A stretch of 64,000 nucleotides of DNA. It comes from Deltaproteobacteria bacterium. Its GTDB lineage: Bacteria; Desulfobacterota; WTBG01; CAIYCZ01; CAIRTM01. Below are positions 36,265 to 58,659 of this stretch, one piece after another (positions within the stretch are counted from its first letter, which is position 1; each line of letters opens with the position of its first letter). Position numbers and translations under genes: made by a program. Location of the stretch: positions 47,390 through 111,389 of the forward strand of contig JAJRXD010000013.1 of NCBI GenBank assembly GCA_024276465.1, in the 5' to 3' direction. The notes below the pieces were generated by a model. The model was not told the DNA's origin and did no database searches. It was given only the letters and a program-made list of their open reading frames with translations.

Positions 36265-36727
36265 TAACCTCTCAGCCTTTTTATGACCATTTTATAAACA
36301 GTTTTGGTGAATAATAATTAACATAGTAGTACGTTCTGTAATTTTTTATTGCATACGAACCTGTCAATGACACCCTGACATACCACTTTATTTATGAAAC
36401 GCTCTACTATTGTGTTTTTGCTTCTTAAAATTTGCAGAATACCTGCACAAATTTTTTATAAAAATATAAAGCTCTATCAACTTTAATATTATATCATACT
36501 ATCTCTCATGACAAACGCAAAAAACAAAAAAGAGATAATCTGTTAATAATTCACGAAAAGCAATATTTACCCATGCGCAGTATCCTGAAATTGATTTTTG
36601 AAAACCTGCAAAGCAGCGCACATCAGTGATATTCTGTACCATACAGGCAATAGTCAATCTGGATTATTAACACAAAATTAATTTCACCTTTATTAACTAT
36701 TAATACGATGCAGGTAGATTTATTTGT

Positions 36728-36888
36728 AAGTAGTGGGTGAACGAAAACCCTGATTAAGGTTGGAAACCGAAAAATAATTTTCTGTAGGAGCGCCTTCAGG
36801 CGCGATATCAGTTCTGTTTTTCGCGCCTGAAGGCGCTCCTACAGCATAAAATCAGGACTTTTCGGGCAGCCACTAAGTAGTGGGTGAA
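36728..36888. repeat. 161-bp palindromic element: 23-bp perfect inverted repeat flanked by 15-bp direct repeats
   Basis: IR ctgtaggagcgccttcaggcgcg (36782-36804) pairs with cgcgcctgaaggcgctcctacag (36822-36844). DR taagtagtgggtgaa at 36728-36742 and 36874-36888. Confidence 0.6.
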
Positions 36889-36987
36889 TAAAAATCCTTA
36901 CACAGAGTGAGGAATCAAGCATGTATCTTTTTTCAGGTTTTATCCTGATTTTTGTTGAGACTGTACAAAAGGAGTATCTGCGAACAT

Positions 36988-46300: not shown

Positions 46301-46563
46301 CCGTCAAAGGGAATCTCTTTGAGTGCCTGCAGGGCGCTCAGGATATTGCCCTCGGTAAACGGCAGCTCTCTTCCCTTGAATCTGACCCGGTTATTTTTCC
46401 GCAGCCAGTCAGCAAGAATTCCCTCCAGGAGTACGCCCCCCAGCCTGCCGCTCCGAAGGTCAAGAGCCTCTTTTGGTGTCAGATATTGCCATCCCAGATT
46501 CTGAAGCAGGTGCAGGGCAGGGAGCTGAGAAATGGCGTCTTCGTTTAAAACTGGCGCCCTCAT
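43366..46563 (-). CDS. hsdR: Type I restriction enzyme R subunit
   Basis: 1065 aa. HsdR N-terminal nuclease region and DEAD/DEAH helicase motifs (GSGKS, DEGHRGQ). Confidence 0.95.
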   Translation of the reverse strand: MRAPVLNEDAISQLPALHLLQNLGWQYLTPKEALDLRSGRLGGVLLEGILADWLRKNNRVRFKGRELPFTEGNILSALQALKEIPFDGLVRTNEKIYDLLCLGKSLQQSVDGDIKSFTLHYIDWEHPDNNIFHVTEEFTVERAGSHQTRRPDIVLFVNGIPFCVIECKSPHIKESLAQAISQQIRNQKHDEIPHLFIYSQLLLVLSKNEAKYATTGTPLKFWSAWREDNIETVGADGHPPLKELVNIPLTENQVDRLFTDNEWMVREKPTAYGTLKRQVTEQDRALYALCRPERLLELTYRFILFDAGVKKIARYQQYFAVRKIMDRIGNREQNGRRRGGVVWHTQGSGKSLTMVLLAKSIALCPEITDYKIVLVTDRVDLDDQIYRTFHHCGKEVEQAGTGKHLSQMLKGNKQRIVTTIIDKFEAAVGRHVVRNDDPDIFVLIDEGHRGQYGPRHAKMRRVLPNACYIGFTGTPVMKKDKNTVEKFGGLIDTYTIDRAVADKAVVPLLYEGRHVEQHVDSNGIDAWFERITTNLSDEQSADLKKKFATTDQLNKAAQKVMAIAWDISEHFRDNWQGTGFKGQMVTQDKAAALLYKKYLDEFAMVSCEVLISGPDEREGEEDLYEENKLAVHRFWKTIISKYGSEREYNKQIINAFKNAEHPEIIIVVDKLLVGFDAPRNTILYLMRKLKDHTLLQAIARVNRLSNSKDFGYIIDYRGVLENLDHALDLYSTLSEFDSGDIENILTDVSVETSTLPQKHSLLWDTFKEVKNKQDEEAYELALADVGLRTRFYERLSAFSKTLGIALSSVKFLEETDPEKLSRYRADLKFFSKLRTAVRKRYAEVVDFSEYEPKIQKLLDTHVGTGEVEKITSLVNIFDADAFAREVEKLPNAAAKADTIAHRTARTIHERMQEDPAFYKRFSELLIAAIAAFREERIKANEYLRKVTEIMNAVRNRTGDRIPEKLKSHDVAKAYFGSLKEIIGRLDNGRDDFEDVLADVALAIDEVIERNRIVSWDSDMDTQNRMRNDIEDLLFDFKDREGIEITFEEMDAIMEQCLDIARIRKP

Positions 46564-48095
46564 CGGTTTTTCTCCTGTTCAAGTAGTTGCTGTCCCTTTA
46601 TCGTCAGCCGATATTTCTGCTTGCTGCTTGTTGGCTTGTCAGGAATGGTCATTTCAATAAACGCAGCCTCGATAAGATGATTCAATACTTGCTGCCTGAA
46701 CTTGGTGCGATCTTTTCGTCCTGTAATGGACATAAGCTCAAGCAATGTACTTTCCCCCTTGCATTTATTGAGTATTTCAACTTGGTGCCGACTTAGTGCC
46801 GACTTAGTGCCAACTTGTGTATCCTGCAGCCATTTCAGAGATTCAGCAAAAACAGGATGGATAAATAATTCTACCAGAAAATAAGTCCTTTCGTCATCCG
46901 TATGGAATATAGGCGCAGGAGAACCATTGTCCCTAATCGCCCTTAACATTTTTGGAATGCCGGTTCCTCGCCCCTCGGTCATTTCAAGCTCCTTGAGGAA
47001 CTCCCCGACCCGGCGGTTACGGTATCGACGGGACAGAAAACGGAATTCTTGCATGTCTTTTTTCCGGATGGATCGGTCAGGCCCAGGAAAGCTGGAAATG
47101 GTTATACGATCCGGCAAAATGCGCACCTCCATAGGCTCCCTGATTTCATAAGAACGGTGATACACAGCGTTACAGAGGGCTTCTTCAATGGCGGCAAACG
47201 GATAGTTGAAAAAACGGTCGGCTTCTGCACGGTCAGGGTGCTTGATGATCTTTTCCTCTATCACCGTCGAGCGGATATGAGCAAGTGCATCCTGCAACAT
47301 AACGTGGAGCGGCCCAGTGAAAATCTTTTCAGTGAAAAAGTCCGCCCCGGGACCTTCAGGAAAATGCACTACATCAATCTGTGTTTGAGGGAAAAATTTG
47401 GAGGGATTGTTGTTAAAGAACATGAGGCCGACATTCCTGGGCCACACTGCTTCGTCAGGCCCGTCAGCAATGTTTATCCGGCGGCAAAGCTGGACAAAAT
47501 TCATTTTTGCCGCTTCGGGAAAAAGATCGCTTTTGACCTGCTTCAGATAGGCACGCATCAGTCCCAGATCCAAATCGTCAAAAATGGCAGCCTGGTTCAT
47601 GCGGTCGTCAAAGGGAACAGTGGCAGCAAGGCTCATTAATTCCACTTCATCCTGATGCCTGGCTCGAACAGTAACTGACCCCTTACGAATATAGTAGGCA
47701 AATTCCCTCTTGCCCTTTGCCAGAGAAACCGGGGCTTTGTAGGGCCTGGTCTGACCTCCTATGGCCCAGAGCACCAGGATGTGTTTTTCGCCAATTTTAC
47801 ATGGAGCTATAATCGGGTGATAATAAGGCACCATCCGGTAGCCAAACTCCACGATTTCTTTCTGGATGGCGTCAAGTTCCCCGGCTGGCATCCCTTGTGG
47901 CGGCAAAACAGGCCGGCCATTATCTTCTTCCACTCCGATGATGATGTATCCACCGCCAAGGTTATGAAAATCATTGGCAAAAGCACACATGGTGTGCAGC
48001 ACCTTTTCCGGGTTCCAGCCGGCCTTGAACTCCAGCCGTTCCCATTCCACGGTCCGGGCGGTGAGAAGGTCGTTTATGTTAATTGGGAGGTTCAT
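46560..48095 (-). CDS. AlbA_2 (Schlafen-like DNA-binding) and HATPase_c_4 domain ATP-binding protein
   Basis: N-terminal AlbA_2-type domain (EFKAGWNPEKVLHTMCAFANDFHNLGGGYIIIGV). Probable start MNLPININ at 48095; the ORF track starts at a GTG at 48131. Confidence 0.65.
   Translation of the reverse strand: MNLPININDLLTARTVEWERLEFKAGWNPEKVLHTMCAFANDFHNLGGGYIIIGVEEDNGRPVLPPQGMPAGELDAIQKEIVEFGYRMVPYYHPIIAPCKIGEKHILVLWAIGGQTRPYKAPVSLAKGKREFAYYIRKGSVTVRARHQDEVELMSLAATVPFDDRMNQAAIFDDLDLGLMRAYLKQVKSDLFPEAAKMNFVQLCRRINIADGPDEAVWPRNVGLMFFNNNPSKFFPQTQIDVVHFPEGPGADFFTEKIFTGPLHVMLQDALAHIRSTVIEEKIIKHPDRAEADRFFNYPFAAIEEALCNAVYHRSYEIREPMEVRILPDRITISSFPGPDRSIRKKDMQEFRFLSRRYRNRRVGEFLKELEMTEGRGTGIPKMLRAIRDNGSPAPIFHTDDERTYFLVELFIHPVFAESLKWLQDTQVGTKSALSRHQVEILNKCKGESTLLELMSITGRKDRTKFRQQVLNHLIEAAFIEMTIPDKPTSSKQKYRLTIKGQQLLEQEKNR
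46785..46817. repeat. 11-bp tandem repeat, 3 copies, inside the AlbA_2 gene
   Basis: gtgccgactta gtgccgactta gtgccaacttg. Confidence 0.6.
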
Positions 48096-48105
48096 ATTTT
48101 CACCT

Positions 48106-48897
48106 TTAATTTCCGGTTTCAGGGCAGACACGCAGGTCTGCCCCTACAACGGCAGGGTTTTCCCGGTCGTGTTCCCATTTGGCCGGATTATCAATGATGT
48201 ATTGGCGAAGGCGGTTTAATTCGTTTTCATTGCGGACAATATGTTCCCAATAATTGCGTTGCCATAATTTGCCGTCAAATCGTGGCCAACCGCATTGTTT
48301 GACACCACGGATATATTCATTGGTTGTTATGGTTTTAAACCATTGAACCACCGCCCGTAGGGGCGCACCTGTGTGTGCGCCCGTTGTTTCGTGTGCGTCC
48401 GGTTCGGGTTCGCCTGGTTCCATGTGTTCGTCCGTTTTGTGGTTGTCCGAATCGTGGTTGTCCCCTATGTGTTCCCGCGGTTTTGTAGGGGCAATCCTGC
48501 GTGATTGCCCATTGTTCCGTGATCGCACATCACTAGGGCAGACACGCAGGTCTGTTTCAGGGCAGACACGCAGGTCTGCCCCTACATTGACAACAACACC
48601 GTGAAAATGATTCGGCATAACAATATATTCATCACATCGAATATCCGGGAATTTGTTTTCTAATTCCTGATACCATTTCTTCACCATCCGTCCCGGATCA
48701 TTCAATACCATTTCACCATCCACAATTTTACCAAACATACATTCCCGATTCTGTGTGCATATTGTCACAAAATATGCCCCTGATTGCGAATAATCATATC
48801 CCCGCAAACGGATAGACCGACGGTTTCGTTCCCGCCGTAGGGGCAACCCCCTGTGGTTGCCCACATCCAATTCTGTATCCGAATCCCGTTTAATCAT
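48106..48897 (-). CDS. REP-associated tyrosine transposase (RAYT, IS200/IS605 TnpA-like HUH enzyme) with REP palindromes inside the ORF
   Basis: HUH motif MPNHFHGVV and Tyr motif LWQRNYWEHIVRNE...YIIDNPAKW. The spacing between the two motifs is about 57 aa longer than canonical because of a REP-containing in-frame insert. Confidence 0.8.
   Translation of the reverse strand: MIKRDSDTELDVGNHRGLPLRRERNRRSIRLRGYDYSQSGAYFVTICTQNRECMFGKIVDGEMVLNDPGRMVKKWYQELENKFPDIRCDEYIVMPNHFHGVVVNVGADLRVCPETDLRVCPSDVRSRNNGQSRRIAPTKPREHIGDNHDSDNHKTDEHMEPGEPEPDAHETTGAHTGAPLRAVVQWFKTITTNEYIRGVKQCGWPRFDGKLWQRNYWEHIVRNENELNRLRQYIIDNPAKWEHDRENPAVVGADLRVCPETGN
48122..48147 (-). repeat. REP element (GTAG-headed palindrome) overlapping the RAYT stop
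   Basis: Minus strand reads gtaggggcagacctgcgtgtctgccc. Confidence 0.75.
48357..48382 (+). repeat. REP element variant inside the RAYT ORF
   Basis: gtaggggcgcacctgtgtgtgcgccc. Confidence 0.7.
48485..48510 (+). repeat. REP element variant inside the RAYT ORF
   Basis: gtaggggcaatcctgcgtgattgccc. Confidence 0.7.
48536..48585 (-). repeat. tandem REP pair: a truncated copy at 48536-48554 and a full copy at 48560-48585
   Basis: gggcagacacgcaggtctg tttca gggcagacacgcaggtctgcccctac. Confidence 0.75.
48837..48862 (+). repeat. REP element variant in the 5' part of the RAYT ORF
   Basis: gtaggggcaaccccctgtggttgccc. Confidence 0.7.
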
Positions 48898-49946
48898 ATT
48901 TCTACCCTGATTTCCCCTGTCAGCAGTTTCTGCATCAGGCCCTTCTTTTGTTCCAATAATTTCTCCTGTTTCTTTTTCAATAATTCAATTTCCCGGTCGC
49001 AGGTGGAAAGAGTCCCTGCTATACGTTTTTGTTCGTCTGTGGTAGGCAAGTGAACCGTGGTCTTCATCACAGCGGATGTTGTTAGACCAAACCGCGTGGC
49101 TCCATTAGCATGTGTCGTGAAATGCTTTCGTGACCGTGCGCTACCCAATTCCTTTGACAGAAAAACGGGGTTGACTTCTACGGAGTTCGGGCGGATGAGT
49201 GCGAGGTGATAACCGCATACAACATTCTCTAATTTCTCTGTGACAACTGCCGGAATGCCTATATCATCGGGTGTCTCTGAATCTTTCGTAATCATGACGT
49301 CACCCTGTCGCAGTAAGAACCTTTCAATCTCGGAAGCCGAAGCCGTTGCTGGCATGAAGTTCAGGTCAACGGTGATATAGTCATTCGCATAGACATCCAT
49401 GTAGTTGCAGAGCCTGACGGGTATTTCATCGGTATGAGTCTTCTTGTCCACGCCGCTGAAGGAAACGTGAGCGATGCTGCCAATGGGCCTCTCTTCCCAC
49501 CCCTCCGGCAGTTCGCCTCTTTTCTCAACCGGTTTGCCAAACTCAGGGAACCGCATCCGGCCGGAGAGCAGTTGCTGCATCAGCCCTTTTTTGAGTAATT
49601 CAGCGAAATCTCGATCTACGAGAGCAGGAACAGCAATGTCATCGGCTGTTTCGGAATCCTTTGTAATGAGGACGTCACCCTTTTGCAGAGAATAGCGTTC
49701 AATCTCTCGTGGCATTGCCGTAGCGGACATGAATGAGATGGCGTCTGAAATATGGGCGTTGTAGTAAACGTCCGTATAATTGCACAGGCGTACTGCCTGC
49801 TCTCCCTTATGTGATTTTTTGTCGACGTTGCTGAAACGTACATCAGCGACATCCTCAAGCCGCACACATTCCCATTCCTCCGGTATCCACCCAACTTTGG
49901 AATCCTTATATCCGAGCCTGTTTTCGTTCCGCTTGCTCATGCGCAT
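48894..49946 (-). CDS. hsdS: Type I restriction-modification specificity subunit with two similar target-recognition domains
   Basis: 350 aa. Duplicated TRD blocks (VRLCNYTDVY...ITKDSETADDIAVPALV and VRLCNYMDVY...ITKDSETPDDIGIPAVV). Conserved coiled-coil spacer regions. Confidence 0.85.
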   Translation of the reverse strand: MRMSKRNENRLGYKDSKVGWIPEEWECVRLEDVADVRFSNVDKKSHKGEQAVRLCNYTDVYYNAHISDAISFMSATAMPREIERYSLQKGDVLITKDSETADDIAVPALVDRDFAELLKKGLMQQLLSGRMRFPEFGKPVEKRGELPEGWEERPIGSIAHVSFSGVDKKTHTDEIPVRLCNYMDVYANDYITVDLNFMPATASASEIERFLLRQGDVMITKDSETPDDIGIPAVVTEKLENVVCGYHLALIRPNSVEVNPVFLSKELGSARSRKHFTTHANGATRFGLTTSAVMKTTVHLPTTDEQKRIAGTLSTCDREIELLKKKQEKLLEQKKGLMQKLLTGEIRVEI

Positions 49947-51858: not shown

Positions 51859-52823
51859 ATACCTCCGTTGTTGAGGTCCAAAAAAGTCTTGATCATTTCC
51901 GCCTTATGCGAGAAATCCCTATCAGCACGAGACTTCAAATCGCGCAGGTCAGCCGGATCGTCCAAAGGAAGCGCAGAGTCTGAGTCAAAATTGAGTCTTA
52001 AAATCTGCTCTGGTCTCAGGAGAAGACCTGTCATGTTGTTGGCTGTTTCAGATTGAAGATTTAGCAGCATTGAAATGAACTTTCCATGCTGCCAGCGTGT
52101 TGCAAATCCCCAGCCCTGATATCGCTTCCACCATGGCCGCTTCTGTGGATAAAAGCTACGGCTAACTCCTGTGCCGAGGGTAAACACCTTAAGGGAGTCA
52201 AGGTCCTTGCCAAGCCGCTTTTTGGCGTCAATTACTGCAACAAGTGAAGGACTGTTTGCCCACAACCCCCCATCGGCCAGAAGGTACTCACCTACATTTT
52301 GAGGATCGAAATAGGTGGGGGCTGAGCAGGATGCCATAACGGCATCTCGGATAAGAACGTTGCGGTCACGGACAAACCCTTTATCATAGCCCGACTTGAA
52401 CACATGAACACATCCGTTCCCGATGTCAGTTGCCGGAATAATGAGTGGCGTTGTTACTTGCCCAAGTCGGCGGTCAGCAAAAACCTCCTGCAGAATGTCA
52501 CGAAGGTATTGGTTTCTGTATCGACTCCTAATAAAACCAAAGCGTGGCATAAACCGGCGAGGAAATATCTGAGCACCGTGTTCTTCGTAGAATTCCACGA
52601 TGTCACACGCGCGCATTTCGCACGCAAGTCCTGCCGCAACTATTGAACCGGTACTCGTACCTGCAATCAATTGAAAATGATTTCGCAAATCCAAGTCGTA
52701 TTCTTGCTCAATCCGGGCAAGAATATGGGCGGCATAGACGCCACGAAATCCACCACCGTCAACGGAAAGAATACGGAAGGAGTTGTCTGCAGAACTTGAC
52801 AGAACAGGGTTCGATTTGCTCAT
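51855..52823 (-). CDS. capV: patatin-like phospholipase (CapV-like CBASS effector)
   Basis: 322 aa. Oxyanion hole DGGGFRG, nucleophile elbow GTSTG, catalytic dyad Asp in ADGG. Confidence 0.85.
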   Translation of the reverse strand: MSKSNPVLSSSADNSFRILSVDGGGFRGVYAAHILARIEQEYDLDLRNHFQLIAGTSTGSIVAAGLACEMRACDIVEFYEEHGAQIFPRRFMPRFGFIRSRYRNQYLRDILQEVFADRRLGQVTTPLIIPATDIGNGCVHVFKSGYDKGFVRDRNVLIRDAVMASCSAPTYFDPQNVGEYLLADGGLWANSPSLVAVIDAKKRLGKDLDSLKVFTLGTGVSRSFYPQKRPWWKRYQGWGFATRWQHGKFISMLLNLQSETANNMTGLLLRPEQILRLNFDSDSALPLDDPADLRDLKSRADRDFSHKAEMIKTFLDLNNGGM

Positions 52824-54340
52824 AGACCCAGTTCCTTTAAATAACCGCCGAGTTTTTTCTGAGTACTTGCAAGCTCCGTCTCGATCTCTTCAATTTCCTT
52901 TTGAACGGCAGAAATGTCGATGTCCTCTTCTTCCTCAAAGGTATCCACATAGCGGGGGATATTCAGATTGAATTCGGCTTCCTGAATCTCTTCCAGCGTT
53001 GCCAGGTGGGAGTATTTTTCTACTTCCTCGAATTTGCGGAACGTAGAGATGATCTTTTCGATATCTTCATCCCGCAGGCGGTTCTGCTTTTTCTCGTCTT
53101 TAAACTCGCGGCTGGCGTCTATAAAAAGAACATGCTTATCACGTTTGTTCTTTGCCGTTTTCCAGGGTTTCCTGCCCTTGTTGAAAACAAGAATGGCCGC
53201 CGGTATCCCGGTGCCGTAGAAAAGCTGGGCGGGTAGACCAATAACCGCTTCAAGGATATTGTCCTCAATGAACGCCTTCCGGATAACGCCTTCCGCTCCA
53301 CCACGAAACAGAACCCCGTGAGGCACAATGACGCCCACCTTGCCTTCACCCTCCAGGGTAATTTCAACCATGTGGCTGATAAAAGCGTAATCGCCCCGGC
53401 TTTTTGGCGGGACCCCGCGCCAGAAGCGGTTGAACCGGTCGTGACTTGCATTTTCCTGGCCCCACTTATCCAGAGAAAACGGCGGATTGGCAACCACGAC
53501 ATTGAAGCGCATCAGTTCGTCGTTCTCTATCAGCCTGGGGTTGTTGATGGTGTCGCACCATTCAATGCGGGCAGAATCCATTGAATGCAAAAACATGTTC
53601 ATTCGGCACAGGGACCAGGTGGAACCGTTGGACTCCTGGCCGGACAGGGCAAAATTCGGACTCCCGACTTCCTGACCGACTTTGATGAGAAGCGATCCTG
53701 ACCCGCAGGCCGGGTCACAGATACGGTCTCCGTCTTTGGGATTAAGCAATTTGGCAAGCAGCGTGGAAACTTCGGCTGGAGTGTAGAACTCGCCGGCTTT
53801 TTTCCCGGCCCCGGCCGCAAAACGGGAAATCAGGTATTCATACACGTCACCGATTACGTCACGATTCCCAATGCGTGAGGGGCGCAAATCAAGACGCTCA
53901 TCGGCAAAGTCCTCCAGAAGATTCTTCAGGCGGCGGTTGCGCTCCTTGGTCTGACCCAAGGCAGGTTCGCTGTTGAAATCAATATTGCGAAAAACATTTT
54001 CGAGTTTCGACTTGTTGGCATCCTCGATTTTTTCAAGGGCAATATTGATGATCTCACCGATATTGGGCTCGTCGCGTCTGCTGTAGAGGGAATTAAAGTT
54101 TGATTCCGGAGGCACCACAAAGCGTTCCCGGGCCAGTGCTCTTTCCACTCGGGCAGCATCACCATTATATTTTTTCTCGTATTCGGCTCTTTTGTCCTTC
54201 CACAGGTCGCTCATGTACTTGATGAAGAGCATGGTAAGGATGTAATTCTTGTATTCCGACGGATCGACTGCGCCCCTGAAGGTGTCGCAGGCCCGCCAGA
54301 CAACATCATTGATTTCTTTTTGGGAAACGTGAGGACTCAT
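52820..54340 (-). CDS. hsdM: Type I restriction-modification N6-adenine DNA methyltransferase subunit
   Basis: 506 aa. HsdM N-terminal domain. SAM-binding motif DPACGSGS. Catalytic NPPF (VVANPPFS). Confidence 0.95.
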   Translation of the reverse strand: MSPHVSQKEINDVVWRACDTFRGAVDPSEYKNYILTMLFIKYMSDLWKDKRAEYEKKYNGDAARVERALARERFVVPPESNFNSLYSRRDEPNIGEIINIALEKIEDANKSKLENVFRNIDFNSEPALGQTKERNRRLKNLLEDFADERLDLRPSRIGNRDVIGDVYEYLISRFAAGAGKKAGEFYTPAEVSTLLAKLLNPKDGDRICDPACGSGSLLIKVGQEVGSPNFALSGQESNGSTWSLCRMNMFLHSMDSARIEWCDTINNPRLIENDELMRFNVVVANPPFSLDKWGQENASHDRFNRFWRGVPPKSRGDYAFISHMVEITLEGEGKVGVIVPHGVLFRGGAEGVIRKAFIEDNILEAVIGLPAQLFYGTGIPAAILVFNKGRKPWKTAKNKRDKHVLFIDASREFKDEKKQNRLRDEDIEKIISTFRKFEEVEKYSHLATLEEIQEAEFNLNIPRYVDTFEEEEDIDISAVQKEIEEIETELASTQKKLGGYLKELGL

Positions 54341-54343
54341 TTT

Positions 54344-54928
54344 TTATCTCTCCTGTTCTTGAATTGCATTTAAGCAGGCAGCCTTGACAAGACGTGATCG
54401 CGTCTGCGCAAGCCTTTCCAGAAGGAATTGTTCGCGACTGGCAAGCGCTACGCTTAGCACAATTTTTTTCTGAATGGAAACCGGCGGAATCATGACTTGC
54501 AGACGGGAAAGCGTGTGCTTGGAGACAAATGAGATCCCCGTTCCCCGGGCCTGTGCCCTCAGCCAGGCTTGCGCTTTTGACTGATTCAGCCACCAAGCCA
54601 GATATTGTGGAATAATCTCATTCCCTTTCACGCGAAGGATATAGAAAGAACCTGAAGCAAGTGTGTTCTTCAAATCAGCTTCAATATAACCGGCAAAATG
54701 AGCTATTCCACGAGCCTGAAAAAGTATATCGCCTTTGCAAACAGAATAAATTTCAGGCTTTCGCTCAGGGAAAAATGCAGTAAGATTATCCGGCATTAAA
54801 CAATGAAGACAATCGAAATCTTTGGTTTGAATAAGATAATGCGTACCTTTTACATTTTCCTTAATGCTGGCTTTTGCCTGATATCCTGCCTGAATGCTGG
54901 CAACTGTTTTTAAAAAAGTGCTTGTCAT
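54344..54928 (-). CDS. truncated or half-size Type I specificity subunit (single TRD)
   Basis: 194 aa. One TRD plus a conserved C-terminal helical region (IPPVSIQKKIV...LERLAQTRSRL). Lies immediately upstream of hsdM. Confidence 0.6.
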   Translation of the reverse strand: MTSTFLKTVASIQAGYQAKASIKENVKGTHYLIQTKDFDCLHCLMPDNLTAFFPERKPEIYSVCKGDILFQARGIAHFAGYIEADLKNTLASGSFYILRVKGNEIIPQYLAWWLNQSKAQAWLRAQARGTGISFVSKHTLSRLQVMIPPVSIQKKIVLSVALASREQFLLERLAQTRSRLVKAACLNAIQEQER

Positions 54929-55303
54929 TAAATTAATACCACAACAATGTCAGTATTAGCCCTACTTATTGCTAAATATAGCATAAGCTTGATTTAATGT
55001 CAAGAAAAATAATAAGTAATAAATCTACTAACTTGTTTCCTTCCGGTTTTTCGCACCTGTCAACATCAACCTGAGGAAGGAAAAACAAACAAACTGCAGA
55101 ATGTAACCTATTGATATTGACTCAAAAAATACAGGAAAAGGTTTCACTACATAAACAACATTTTTTCTCCTGTCCCTAAATTAACCCAAAATTAACAAAA
55201 CCCTTATCAGGGGTTAACAGAACTAACCTAATTAATACAACTAAGCCATGGTGCTTAAAATGGAAATTTAATTTAATTAATTACAAACACGGAAGGTAAA
55301 CTT

Positions 55304-56335
55304 ATGAAAAGATCAATCTTTTTTTATATCTTGATTATTTTAGCTGGTTTTAATGCACAGGCCATGGGAAGTGAACTGATAGGGGCTGGGGCAACATTTC
55401 CGTATCCGTTTTATTCGAAATTATTTGACACATATCATAAAGAGAAGGGGGTTAAAATCAACTACCAGGCAATTGGCTCAGGAGGTGGAATTAGACAACT
55501 TACAAAAAAGACTGTGGATTTTGGCGGAACAGATGCATTTATGAAAGAAAAAGATATGGAAAACGCATCCTCACCCATCCTCCATATCCCGACCTGTCTT
55601 GGTGCTGTTGTAGTGACCTACAATATTCCGGGAAACCTTTCTTTAAGACTGACCCCTGATATAATAGCAGATATTTTTCTTGGAAAAATCACTAAATGGA
55701 ACAACAAACGGATCAACAGTATCAATCCACAATTAAAACTTCCTGACATGAACATTGTTGTTGTCCACCGGTCCGATGGCAGTGGAACTACATTTATATT
55801 CACTGATTACCTGAGCAAGGTAAGTTCTGAGTGGAAGGAAAAGGCCGGGACCGGAAAATCCCTTAACTGGCCTGCAGGGCTTGGAGCAAAGGGAAATTCC
55901 GGGGTTGCCGGGCTTGTAAAACAGATTCCTGGATCAATAGGATATGTTGAACTTATATATGCCATGAGCAATAACATGCCGTATGCTGATATAAAAAACA
56001 GGTCAGGTGTCTTTGTGAAGCCTTCAATTGAATCGGTCAGCCTTGCTGCAGAGGTTGCGATGCCGGATGATACCCGTGTAACTATTACTGATACAGGGGC
56101 AACAGATGGATACCCGATCAGTGGTTTTACATGGCTGATAATTTACAAGGAACAAAACTATAAGGGCAGAAGCAAAGAAAAGGCAGAAACACTGCTGAAC
56201 ATGCTCTGGTGGGTTTTACATGAGGGCCAGCAGCTTGCCGAGCCTCTTCACTATGCGCCGCTTCCAAAAAGGGTGGCAGAAAAAGGTGAAGCCATTTTAC
56301 GCTCTGCAACCTATAATAATAAAAAGATTCTATAA
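55304..56335 (+). CDS. pstS: phosphate ABC transporter substrate-binding protein
   Basis: 343 aa. Signal peptide and PstS family similarity (GAGATFPYP, SGTT). Confidence 0.9.
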   Translation: MKRSIFFYILIILAGFNAQAMGSELIGAGATFPYPFYSKLFDTYHKEKGVKINYQAIGSGGGIRQLTKKTVDFGGTDAFMKEKDMENASSPILHIPTCLGAVVVTYNIPGNLSLRLTPDIIADIFLGKITKWNNKRINSINPQLKLPDMNIVVVHRSDGSGTTFIFTDYLSKVSSEWKEKAGTGKSLNWPAGLGAKGNSGVAGLVKQIPGSIGYVELIYAMSNNMPYADIKNRSGVFVKPSIESVSLAAEVAMPDDTRVTITDTGATDGYPISGFTWLIIYKEQNYKGRSKEKAETLLNMLWWVLHEGQQLAEPLHYAPLPKRVAEKGEAILRSATYNNKKIL

Positions 56336-56508
56336 TGTCCAAAACAAGGTATTAACATATTGTTTTTGCATGTGTTTCAAGGTTGAGATTGCTTCGGTCG
56401 TACTTCCCTCGCAATGACATTAACTGTTTGATTTTGCTTTGCATTGTCATTGCGAGCGAAGCGTGGCAATCTCGTTCTTGGACAACAATGAAAAAGATTC
56501 TATAATGT
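56321..56508. repeat. 170-bp palindromic insertion at the pstS/pstC junction bounded by 18-bp direct repeats
   Basis: DR aaaaagattctataatgt at 56321-56338 and 56491-56508. Internal composite IR 56385-56473 (gagattgc...ctcgcaatgaca / tgtcattgcgag...gcaatctc). Confidence 0.65.
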
Positions 56509-57461
56509 TGAAAGCAGCAGTTTTAAAAAACAGGCTCGGTTCTGAAACAAGCATGAGAGAAGAAAGTCAGCCGGAACAGATAAGAGCGTCTTTTCTGTCT
56601 GACTCAGTATTTAAGACAGCACTCAATGTTTCCGCTGTTTTTATGTTGTTAATTCTGGCAGGAATTTTTGTTACTCTTGTACTTGAATCGATTCCATCCA
56701 TTAAAGCTGCCGGATTTTCATTCCTCACGGGAAAAACGTGGGACCCTGTTTTCAGGGAATATGGCACTTTTGTATTTCTTGTCGGAACTCTTGTAACCTC
56801 TTTTTTAGCTCTGATTATTTCAATTCCGTTCTCCCTTGCCATAGCTCTTTTTTCAGGAGAATACTTCAGGCAGGGCGTGTTTTCATCTTTTCTTAAAAGT
56901 GCTGTAGAGCTTCTTGCCGGAATTCCATCTGTTGTATATGGTTTCTGGGCTTTGCTTATTCTGGTTCCTCTGGTGCGAACCTTTGAAATGAAAGCTGGTA
57001 TTATTCCCTATGGTGTGGGAATTTTAACAGCATCCCTGATTCTTGCTGTTATGATTGTCCCTTACTCGGCATCCATTGGAAGTGATATAATAAGTCTGGT
57101 GCCTTCTGACCTCAAAGAGGCTGCACTGTCACTGGGGTCCACCAGGTTTGAGATGATAATGAAAGTAGTATTTCCCTATGCACGCTCAGGAATATGTGCC
57201 GGAATTCTTTTGTCCCTTGGCAGGGCCATAGGGGAAACCATGGCAGTTACCATGGTGATTGGAAACTCAAACCTGATGCCTGAAAATATTTTCAGTCCTG
57301 CAAATACCATGGCAAGTATTATTGCAAATGAATTTACAGAGGCTACAGGCGATGTATATGTTTCAAGTCTTATTGAGGTGGGACTTGTTCTTTTGCTGGT
57401 CAGCTTAATCATAACTGTTACAGGCCGTTATATAATAAACAGAACAAGCATGCAGCAGTAG
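56505..57461 (+). CDS. pstC: phosphate ABC transporter permease
   Basis: Six TM segments and an ABC permease EAA-like loop. Start taken as the ATG inside the second direct-repeat copy (ORF-track start 56439 lies inside the inserted element). Confidence 0.85.
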   Translation: MLKAAVLKNRLGSETSMREESQPEQIRASFLSDSVFKTALNVSAVFMLLILAGIFVTLVLESIPSIKAAGFSFLTGKTWDPVFREYGTFVFLVGTLVTSFLALIISIPFSLAIALFSGEYFRQGVFSSFLKSAVELLAGIPSVVYGFWALLILVPLVRTFEMKAGIIPYGVGILTASLILAVMIVPYSASIGSDIISLVPSDLKEAALSLGSTRFEMIMKVVFPYARSGICAGILLSLGRAIGETMAVTMVIGNSNLMPENIFSPANTMASIIANEFTEATGDVYVSSLIEVGLVLLLVSLIITVTGRYIINRTSMQQ

Positions 57462-57810
57462 TGGCAACACCTGAACAGAGTGATTTTACCTGTGAGAGTT
57501 TTCCCCACAACAGGTTTTCACTCATTCTCGGCAGACATCCATGTCTGCCTGTGAGGTAAGCATTACGTTTCACCATCCAGGTGAAAATAGTGTAATGCTT
57601 AAACCCGTTCAAACCTGCTGTGGGGAAAGTTCTTTGCAAAACCATATCCTTAAGAACCGGCTTTATTGTGTGTCGAAATCAACTGTTCAGGTGGATAGAC
57701 TGAAGATTGAAGACTGTTGGATTACTTCAGCCTTTAACCTGAACACCTGGGTAGTTACCATTGAATCACAGAAACAAAACTACTCAAACATTGTGTGACA
57801 GGGCAGTAGC

Positions 57811-58659
57811 ATGACGGATGGAAAATTAGTATTCAGAATAATAAAAGACAGACTGTTTCAGGCAGTGGTAATTTTGTTCTCCTTTGCAATGATAGTGCCT
57901 CTGTTTTTAATCATCTATTATATTATCAGAAACGGTATTTCAGTAATAAACTGGGAATTTCTTGTCTCTCTGCCAAAACCCATGGGTGATATTGGCGGTG
58001 GGATTGCAAATGCAGTTGTCGGAACAGCCATGCTGGTTATTGTTGCCACTGTTTTTGCCGTGCCTCTGGGTGTTTGTGCGGGCATTTATCTTTCTGAAAA
58101 CAAAAAAGGCAGGATAGCATATTCGGTTCGGCTTTGTATGGAGATATTGCAGGGTGTCCCGTCAATTGTTATAGGAATCATAGCATATTCGTGGATTGTT
58201 TTAAGCATGGGCACTTTTTCTGCATTGTCAGGCGGGGTAGCACTGGCAATCATGATGCTTCCGGTCATTGTCAGGGCAACAGAAGAAACCTTAAAACTTA
58301 TCCCTGAAAACCTGAGGGAAGCATCCCTGGCTCTTGGTGTGCCATACAGCAGAACAATTATAAAAGTTATTGTTCCAGCCGGCCTTACGGGAATCCTTAC
58401 CGGCGTACTGCTTGGCATTGCACGCATTGCAGGTGAAACAGCACCACTTCTTTTTACGGCATTTGGCAATCCATTCATGAACATTAACATATTCAAGCCC
58501 GTAGATTCCCTGCCCATGTTAATATTCAATTACGCTACAAGCCCCTATCCCCTGTGGCATGCCATGGCCTGGGGCGCCTCTTTTGTGCTGGTAGTGCTTG
58601 TTCTGGGATTGAACATAGTTACAAAGGTGATAACAAACAGATGGAAAGTCAGGTTTTAA
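57811..58659 (+). CDS. pstA: phosphate ABC transporter permease
   Basis: 282 aa. PstA family similarity. Multiple TM segments. Confidence 0.9.
   Translation: MTDGKLVFRIIKDRLFQAVVILFSFAMIVPLFLIIYYIIRNGISVINWEFLVSLPKPMGDIGGGIANAVVGTAMLVIVATVFAVPLGVCAGIYLSENKKGRIAYSVRLCMEILQGVPSIVIGIIAYSWIVLSMGTFSALSGGVALAIMMLPVIVRATEETLKLIPENLREASLALGVPYSRTIIKVIVPAGLTGILTGVLLGIARIAGETAPLLFTAFGNPFMNINIFKPVDSLPMLIFNYATSPYPLWHAMAWGASFVLVVLVLGLNIVTKVITNRWKVRF

Follow-up and report, generated by a model that had tools for sequence, protein, structure and literature searches.

The pstS–pstC junction

The DNA analyzed here is a 64-kb window (64,000 nt of contig JAJRXD010000013.1 from a Deltaproteobacteria genome, with position 1 set throughout at the first nucleotide of the window) containing a pst operon in which the gene for the phosphate-binding protein, pstS, is separated from the permease gene pstC by a palindromic element lying between two copies of an 18-nt direct repeat (Table 1). 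A homologue search with PstS returned 8000 homologues with PBP_like_2/SBP_bac_1 domains, and the N-terminus of PstC (MLKAAVLKNRLGSETS) aligns with MLQTSVAAFKKMAGSKTS of a relative encoded on the metagenome scaffold L121. The repeated 18-mer, AAAAAGATTCTATAATGT, shows 0 mismatches between 56321–56338 and 56491–56508, which lie 170 nt apart from start to start, and its match count was reached in 0 of 100 dinucleotide-preserving shuffles; the perfect repeat holding the pstS stop and the pstC ATG, which a first-pass annotation had picked out, is thereby confirmed as non-random. The upstream copy encodes the last four PstS residues (K K I L) followed by TAA, and its now-unused ATG opens an open reading frame (ORF) of 6 codons; the downstream copy still carries the KKIL-TAA codons, which are unused there, together with the working start of pstC. 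A longer original duplication was rejected, as no significant similarity extends past 18 nt on either side (the downstream alignment was equalled in 275 of 1000 shuffles and the upstream alignment in 83 of 1000).

Table 1. Features of the pst locus, in coordinates of the window.
Feature	Position	Strand	Basis or remark
pstS, phosphate-binding protein, 343 aa, C-terminus KKIL-TAA	55304–56335	+	ORF
Direct repeat copy 1: final pstS codons, TAA stop, now-unused ATG (TAATG)	56321–56338	+	
Inserted DNA, 152 nt, between the repeat copies	56339–56490	+	Absent from the L121 junction
Left insert flank, AT-rich, weakly palindromic	56339–56384	+	
Predicted full stem-loop in pst mRNA, −46 kcal/mol	56376–56482	+	Begins 41 nt past the pstS stop
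Left REP-like unit, TGTC-ATTGC-GAGGGAAGTACGACCGAA-GCAAT-CTC	56385–56419	−	Long degenerate type
Spacer (loop) between head-to-head units, 25 nt	56420–56444	+	
Right REP-like unit, TGTC-ATTGC-GA-GCGAAGC-GTG-GCAAT-CTC	56445–56473	+	Short type, GCGAAGC mini-hairpin motif
Sigma-70-like match, TGGACA-16 nt-TATAAT, 11/12	56479–56506	+	Consensus match only; −35 in right end of insert, −10 in copy 2
Downstream repeat copy (copy 2): remnant codons of the pstS C-terminus with TAA, working pstC ATG at 56505	56491–56508	+	
pstC, permease, 318 aa	56505–57461	+	ORF; BPD_transp_1 match, E 5.7e-17
Further insert of 341 nt between pstC and pstA, structured and unrelated to the first	57462–57802	+	
pstA, permease	57811–58659	+	ORF; followed by pstB and phoU

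To compare this junction with those of other organisms, relatives were gathered through PstS homology. The closest retrievable relative is L121, a European Nucleotide Archive (ENA) metagenome scaffold whose PstS is 79% identical, and at its junction (...aagcttcttaagTAATGttacaaaca..., also ...aagTAATGttacaa...) the pstS stop overlaps the pstC start as TAATG with no spacer, pstC being called from the ATG of the overlap. Merging the two copies of the window into one yields the same geometry (aagattctaTAATGttgaaagca), and an empty allele of the window, with the copies joined directly, would contain ...TATAATAATAAAAAGATTCTATAATGTTGAAAGC.... Because L121 has an uninterrupted TAATG at this position, the window has a net gain of 170 nt, made up of 152 nt of foreign DNA (56339–56490) and the 18-nt duplication of the junction. 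In the other relatives (PstS 60–76% identical) the junctions are non-overlapping, about 22–141 nt long and unrelated in sequence, and the hairpin motif described below (TGTC-ATTGC) is absent from the pst loci of relatives L121 to L166. A search of Joint Genome Institute (JGI) metagenomes for the empty-site allele with a degenerate 37-nt pattern, TAYAAYAAYAARAARATHYTNTAATGYTNAARGCNGC, gave 0 matches.

The vestigial halves that remain in the two copies, an ATG upstream and KKIL-TAA downstream, are explained only by duplication of a once-contiguous junction. The coupled TAATG that the first-pass annotation had reconstructed for the single-copy state is thus found uninterrupted in L121, and its proposal of an insertion with a target-like duplication that spared both ORFs is supported by the empty junction, by the vestiges and by the comparison of relatives that it had suggested, in which the relatives other than L121 have unrelated spacers.

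The hairpin and its repeat family

The center of the insert is a composite hairpin spanning 56385–56473, in which an inner stem of 12 bp (ctcgcaatgaca at 56408–56419 and tgtcattgcgag at 56445–56456) and an outer stem of 8 bp (gagattgc at 56385–56392 and gcaatctc at 56466–56473) enclose a loop of 25 nt, all as first described. The structure prediction also called for at that stage returned a strong fold: the RNA of the plus strand from 56376 to 56482, where positions 56376–56382 of the left flank lengthen the stem via G-U pairs, folds at −46.0 kcal/mol (z −6.98, with 0 of 200 shuffles as good), and the minus strand folds at −39.8 kcal/mol, leaving the sense fold 6 kcal/mol more stable. The 89-nt core alone folds at −36.9 kcal/mol as RNA and −20.1 kcal/mol as DNA. 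The stem-loop is followed by the tail GTTCTTGGAC and not by a U-tract, and a terminator scan listed no site at 56385–56490; an intrinsic (Rho-independent) terminator was therefore rejected. A scan of 54900–58000 against Rfam 15 at E values up to 10 returned only noise, the best match being mir-5727 (E 0.32; 23 bits, where the gathering score is 100), as expected of a generic hairpin.

The two arms of the hairpin are head-to-head units resembling repetitive extragenic palindromic (REP) elements, and together they form a heterodimer of a degenerate, long-type left unit (35 nt) and a short-type right unit (29 nt) with the motif GCGAAGC at 56455–56461. To survey related elements, we scanned for exact matches to CTCGCAATGACA-N15-40-TGTCATTGCGAG in one genome per species and found at least 120 loci with the 12-bp core, spread over more than 10 phyla, in metagenome-assembled genomes (MAGs), isolates and one complete chromosome. 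Among the matches listed are Desulfobacterota, Planctomycetota (including Brocadia), Bacillota, Nitrospinota, Spirochaetota, Chloroflexota (including the isolate Chloroflexus islandicus), Alphaproteobacteria, Patescibacteria, Cyanobacteria, Fibrobacter and Elusimicrobiota, as well as similar AT-rich copies in Desulfobacteraceae MAGs.

Alignment of the matches by eye and by script revealed a shared architecture, (G)AGATTGC-[TT/CA/CG]CG - variable - CTCGCAATGACA - variable loop - TGTCATTGCGAG - variable - CG[AA/TG/CG]-GCAATCT(C), with an outer box common to the family loci of (G)AGATTGC-YWCG...CGWR-GCAATCT(C). Read on a single strand, each arm is a unit of about 30 nt (TGTC, ATTGC, GAG plus a variable segment plus CGWR, GCAAT, CTC), in which a 5-bp closing stem is followed by 9–22 variable nt in all, comprising a purine-rich internal loop and a variable inner mini-hairpin. 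The TGTC tag is invariant by virtue of the search pattern, and most copies have CTC or CCA as the 3-nt tail. In many cases the variable segment itself forms a small hairpin (GCGNAGC, GCCCC-GCA-GGGGC or ACCAGTG-CGCA-CACTGGT), and single units fold no better than shuffles save those with such an inner hairpin. GCGAAGC is carried by 59 of 230 family unit arms; this and the GCGNAGC of many units are the sequences of unusually stable d(GCGNAGC) DNA mini-hairpins, to which standard nearest-neighbor folding gives no special score.

The head-to-head orientation of all 139 matches is imposed by the search pattern, and the arms of a dimer are usually two different unit types. Since the variable segments in the two arms of one copy are no more complementary to each other than to those in the arms of other copies (−0.138 vs −0.156), the dimers are heterodimers whose variable parts form no inter-arm helix. 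In addition to dimers, the family forms frequent tandem arrays that repeat hairpin and inter-hairpin spacer together; there are 397 units in 822 kb of collected loci, at least 6 loci in the Planctomycetota MAG VGYL01, and 15 units in a single 8-kb locus of a Dehalococcoidia chromosome. The window holds one dimer in 64 kb, where the core 11-mer and 19-mer, allowing mismatches, match only its two arms, and the non-hairpin flanks of the insert gave no other copy by blastn against the window and all collected loci. The earlier view of a repeated element is therefore borne out across phyla and not within the window.

By crude ORF calls, 37 family copies lie between tandem, 24 between convergent and 17 between divergent genes, and 24 lie inside long ORFs that are probably spurious. 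An all-against-all blastp of 3219 ORFs from the 120 loci revealed no protein family recurring beside the hairpins that might mobilize them, and carriage by phages was rejected, as only 7 loci were found in 2.9 million viral contigs. A full-text literature search with the DNA strings of the motif and the typical spurious peptides that it yields returned unrelated primers only. The family is extremely widespread and apparently uncatalogued, and it is a known nuisance through the spurious small ORFs that it gives rise to, such as RLLRRxAPRND and CHCEERSDEAIS; cataloguing it would aid genome annotation.

The element is similar to REP elements and bacterial interspersed mosaic elements (BIMEs) in general, with CGTC-superfamily hallmarks, and is not a member of a described family. 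In common with REP/BIME elements it has short imperfect palindromic units (29 and 35 nt here, about 20–40 nt in the class), inverted pairs and arrays in its family, and an extragenic site, here between the co-directional pstS and pstC. Similarly to the enterobacterial elements of malE-malF, hisJ-hisQ and the Escherichia coli pst operon, it is co-transcribed between binding-protein and permease genes and forms a stem-loop lacking a U-tract; its units differ from the enterobacterial ones in sequence, with neither a GTAG head nor the GCCGGATGCGGCG consensus, and its family spans many phyla where enterobacterial REP elements are confined to one clade.

Of the groups in the literature, the best match is the CGTC/TGTC-tagged REP superfamily (Di Nocera, De Gregorio and Rocco, 2013, PMC3733652), to which the dRS3 elements of Neisseria and RPE-4/6 of Rickettsia belong and in which TGTC and CCTC are variants of the unpaired CGTC tag. 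The likeness extends to the unpaired 5′ tag, a stem beginning with A-T (ATTGC/GCAAT), the 3-nt unpaired tail (CTC), a predominance of head-to-head dimers, occurrence in several phyla and the lack of an associated transposase gene. The four described CGTC families have 8–9 bp stems, 4–5 nt loops and rare clusters (PMC3733652), whereas the TGTC units have the shorter closing stem, the longer variable part and the frequent tandem arrays noted above, and the exact TGTC-ATTGC motif is absent from that paper and its supplements.

REPINs, in the sense of Bertels and Rainey, are mobilized by REP-associated tyrosine transposases (RAYTs), which recognize the GTAG head of their units and whose genes have the same REPs on their flanks. 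They also consist of two inverted units that fold with a short spacer into one long hairpin, the presumed mobile unit, but a strict REPIN was rejected, as the TGTC units have no GTAG head and the RAYT-like gene of the window goes with GTAG palindromes of another kind; RAYT linkage was seen at none of the 120 family loci listed. Bacterial miniature inverted-repeat transposable elements (MITEs) such as Correia, ERIC, RUP and Nezha are likewise small, non-coding, hairpin-forming and placed near or between genes, with a flanking direct repeat, co-transcription and a possible change of mRNA stability. MITEs have defined terminal inverted repeats that match a parent insertion sequence (IS) and short, fixed duplications of 2–10 bp. 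A classical MITE was rejected because the inverted repetition of the termini is weak, a parent IS was not found, and the duplication, 18 nt at this junction, is missing at a copy in Treponema. Of the MITE-like insertion first suggested, an inserted, repeated hairpin thus stands, better described as a REP/BIME-like head-to-head dimer with no parent IS or transposase relative and with a duplication that is not a family trait.

Probable effect on pst expression and alternative explanations

Taken together, the explanation that we consider probable is that a REP-like dimer inserted into the TAATG overlap and brought with it a stem-loop that favors PstS over PstCAB-PhoU. The head-to-head dimer within the 152-nt insert would have entered an ancestral, translationally coupled overlap, and the 18-nt duplication would have left an upstream copy that still ends pstS and a downstream copy that starts pstC with its native 14 nt upstream. 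The insert would break termination-reinitiation coupling of the two genes, and the stem-loop past the pstS stop may block 3′–5′ exonucleases after endonucleolytic cleavage downstream, perhaps acting also as a partial transcription stop; the pstS part of the transcript would thereby live longer and be expressed more strongly than pstCAB-phoU, in the manner of the REP hairpins in malE-malF.

The 3′ structure of malE-malF in E. coli protects and stabilizes malE, and the stabilized gene is the substrate-binding gene in four further ATP-binding cassette (ABC) operons (PMC5927463), an analogy by which PstS would be raised relative to PstCAB-PhoU. In Clostridia, stem-loops with low U content after substrate-binding protein (SBP) genes set the ratio of SBP to translocator (PMC9045158); these are also U-poor and directly 3′ of the SBP gene of an ABC importer, but they are locus-specific and evolved in place, while the hairpin of the window is a copy of a dispersed repeat. 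In E. coli K-12 itself (L167, NC_000913.3 3906500–3912000), the 86-nt pstS-pstC spacer holds the REP element gccgggtacggtgttttacgccgcatccggc, and the 182-nt pstA-pstB spacer also holds a canonical REP (GCCGGATGCGGCG...); the RefSeq feature table of this region omits both. Moreover, several of the relatives carry unrelated hairpins after pstS, including terminator-like sequences in L124 and L125 (GGGGAAGCATCC...GGTGCTTCCCC followed by a T-run) and other stem-loops in L122, L123 and L128. The 6 kcal/mol advantage of the sense-strand fold also speaks, if weakly, for a role in the RNA.

If this explanation is right, a dispersed palindromic repeat has separated a translationally coupled stop and start that used to overlap, leaving 170 nt of spacer that includes a strong stem-loop, a clean natural experiment whose resulting layout is the one that E. 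coli and other bacteria use for an excess of binding protein over permease. It would illustrate that selfish hairpin repeats can furnish ready-made regulatory structures inside operons, in an arrangement that mirrors the textbook REP biology of ABC-transporter operons and is of a familiar kind rather than a new kind of system.

Several points weigh against this explanation. The sole empty site comes from a relative at 79% protein identity, the other junctions being non-overlapping at 22–141 nt, and a second copy of the element was not found in the 64-kb window. A Treponema family copy (L043) has no long target duplication when compared with the empty sites L169 and L170. The regulatory effect is a prediction from sequence and analogy, and the hairpin, with no U-tract, is not a canonical terminator. 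In addition, crude ORF calls placed 32 family copies between co-directional genes, and of these the sense strand gave the better fold in 22 and the other strand in 10 (Wilcoxon p 0.14), a weak and non-significant family-wide preference and correspondingly weak evidence of RNA-level selection on the family.

A less likely but serious rival is that the insertion is selfish or neutral, the repeat having hit one of the few places in a compact operon where it does not kill and being tolerated there with no selected effect. This would fit the occurrence of the family in all kinds of intergenic contexts and in arrays with no common neighboring gene, as well as the finding that related genomes can differ in the palindromic element that occupies a given intergenic site. 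The unrelated second insertion, at pstC/pstA, suggests that the junctions of this operon are simply permissive. That insert is flanked by the 7-nt repeat GCAGTAG at 57455–57461 (including the pstC stop) and 57803–57809, and it too spares the genes, as pstC keeps its stop and a single nucleotide still precedes the pstA ATG; L121 has TAAtATG at this point. The insert is highly structured, with nested inverted repeats (CACCTGAACAG/CTGTTCAGGTG, TTTCCCCACAACAGGTTT/AAACCTGCTGTGGGGAAA and GGCAGACAT/ATGTCTGCC) and a folding energy of −120 kcal/mol (z −5.1). It had no Rfam match and gave no other copy by blastn against the window and the collected loci, and it supports the idea of permissive junctions. 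A stem-loop of −46 kcal/mol in the mRNA, combined with the loss of the stop/start overlap, is nevertheless unlikely to be free of effect, and the gain of unrelated hairpins at this very position by independent lineages and by E. coli argues that a hairpin there is, at the least, not disfavored and is probably of use.

It is very improbable that the insert instead supplies a promoter, in which TGGACA from its right end and the native TATAAT would form a sigma-70-type hybrid that frees pstCAB-phoU from the pstS promoter. The match covers 11 of 12 positions and is the best in 5.2 kb, and by our own arithmetic the chance of a −35 box matching at least 5 of 6 positions at a spacing of 16–18, given TATAAT, is about 1.4%. 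However, the −10 box overlaps the pstC ATG, so the transcripts, with a predicted start near 56513, about 8 nt past that ATG, would lack the pstC start codon, and no Shine-Dalgarno sequence precedes the next ATG in frame (56553); DNA as AT-rich as this also contains promoter-like matches in number (18 found against 11.6 expected), and the consensus may not be that of the host. It is hardly credible that the change ran the other way, from an ancestral spacer with the hairpin to the TAATG overlap of L121 through a deletion between the two 18-nt repeats. Recombination between direct repeats would yield an exact single-copy junction, and several relatives have spacers of 22–141 nt. The repeat would nevertheless need an origin of its own, and the useless pstS codons and stop in copy 2 and the unused ATG in copy 1 are the footprint of a duplicated overlap; the other relatives, moreover, have spacers of unrelated sequence in which the family motif does not occur.

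Target duplication, insertion sites and neighboring elements

The 18-nt duplication is unusual for REP-like elements and, to our knowledge, is not a recognized REP feature. IS200/IS605-type transposition, the type that mobilizes REP and REPIN elements, leaves no target duplication, and DDE transposases typically leave duplications of 2–14 bp. The duplication may reflect this one event, whether a staggered break that was filled in or a duplication tied to repair. The pst junction would have acted as a strong selective filter, because an insertion that did not duplicate the overlap would destroy pstS or pstC, and probably only an event duplicating TAATG could survive selection there. With its recoverable empty state, the duplication is one of few footprints bearing on transposase-less REP mobility.

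Many family copies have flanking repeats of at least 25 nt, which on inspection are tandem arrays or a 28-mer of Bacillota, GTTTGTACGCAYTYGGYAGTKCCTGCAC. In loci from gut and rumen Bacillota (for example L030 7230–7525, L090 3350–3660 and L022 2420–2560), this conserved 28-mer regularly brackets the hairpin as a direct repeat, and it also brackets other hairpins, such as GGGGACATGTCCCC, forming repeat-hairpin arrays of irregular spacing. A long duplication as a hallmark of the family was rejected on the Treponema comparison, in which the hairpin of L043 (6280–6380) takes the place of a 9-nt spacer between convergent genes (L169 2150–2170) with a palindrome that abuts and includes both stop codons (TAAtgGATTGC...GCAATCcaTTA). 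At the same Treponema site, L168 (2150–2310) has a different, hairpin-rich insert of 140 nt. Similarly, L055 (1650–1960) and L116 (3270–3460, reverse strand) have flanks that are about 95% identical and different palindromic elements at the same site, a TGTC-type hairpin in one genome and a GTAG-type REP doublet in the other, each sitting within the loop of a bigger palindrome that is conserved (GGTGTCCGCNCCGCGGAC...GTCCGCGGAGCGGACACC). As related genomes carry different palindromic elements at such sites (L055/L116 and L043/L168), these are hot spots, and hairpin loops seem to be among the places favored for insertion.

The window contains a third palindromic element between direct repeats. 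At 36782–36844 lies a perfect, REPIN-like inverted doublet of 24 nt with GTAG heads (CTGTAGGAGCGCCTTCAGGCGCGA / TCGCGCCTGAAGGCGCTCCTACAG), bracketed at 36727 and 36874 (region 36727–36898) by a 25-nt direct repeat, TAAGTAGTGGGTGAAYRAAAAYCCT, whose copies are 88% identical.

A broader proposal, which we regard as quite doubtful, is that the TGTC-ATTGC...GCAAT-CTC hairpin is an unrecognized, actively mobile element that crosses between phyla without change to its 12-bp core and whose integration leaves long and variable target duplications. If so, these would measure 18 nt here, 7 nt at the neighboring insert and perhaps some 25 nt at the 36782 doublet, and they would point to staggered nicks placed far apart (as by Cas1-type or other non-DDE integrases) or to a hairpin-specific route of replication-fork or gap repair. 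In that case, the pst junction would preserve a rare trace of the transposase-less movement of CGTC-type REP elements.

The pst operon adjoins a region of defense genes on the minus strand (52820–54928), in which an ORF similar to type I restriction-modification methylases (52820–54340, with an NPPF motif recognized by eye) and a short specificity-like ORF (54344–54928) lie directly upstream of pstS. Further away on the minus strand, between a type I restriction-modification specificity gene (48894–49946) and a Schlafen-AlbA_2/Fic-like gene (46560–48131), is the RAYT-like gene (48106–48897), which has the HUH motif MPNHFHGVV, a match to NCBIfam NF047646 that falls below the cut-off (E 1.4e-15) and a weak match to Pfam Y1_Tnp. 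This ORF contains in-frame GTAG-type palindromes (GGGCAGACACGCAGGTCTGCCCCTACA) at 48116–48148 and 48554–48586, with another at 48535–48554 and two related ones, which encode segments of the type VGADLRVCP.

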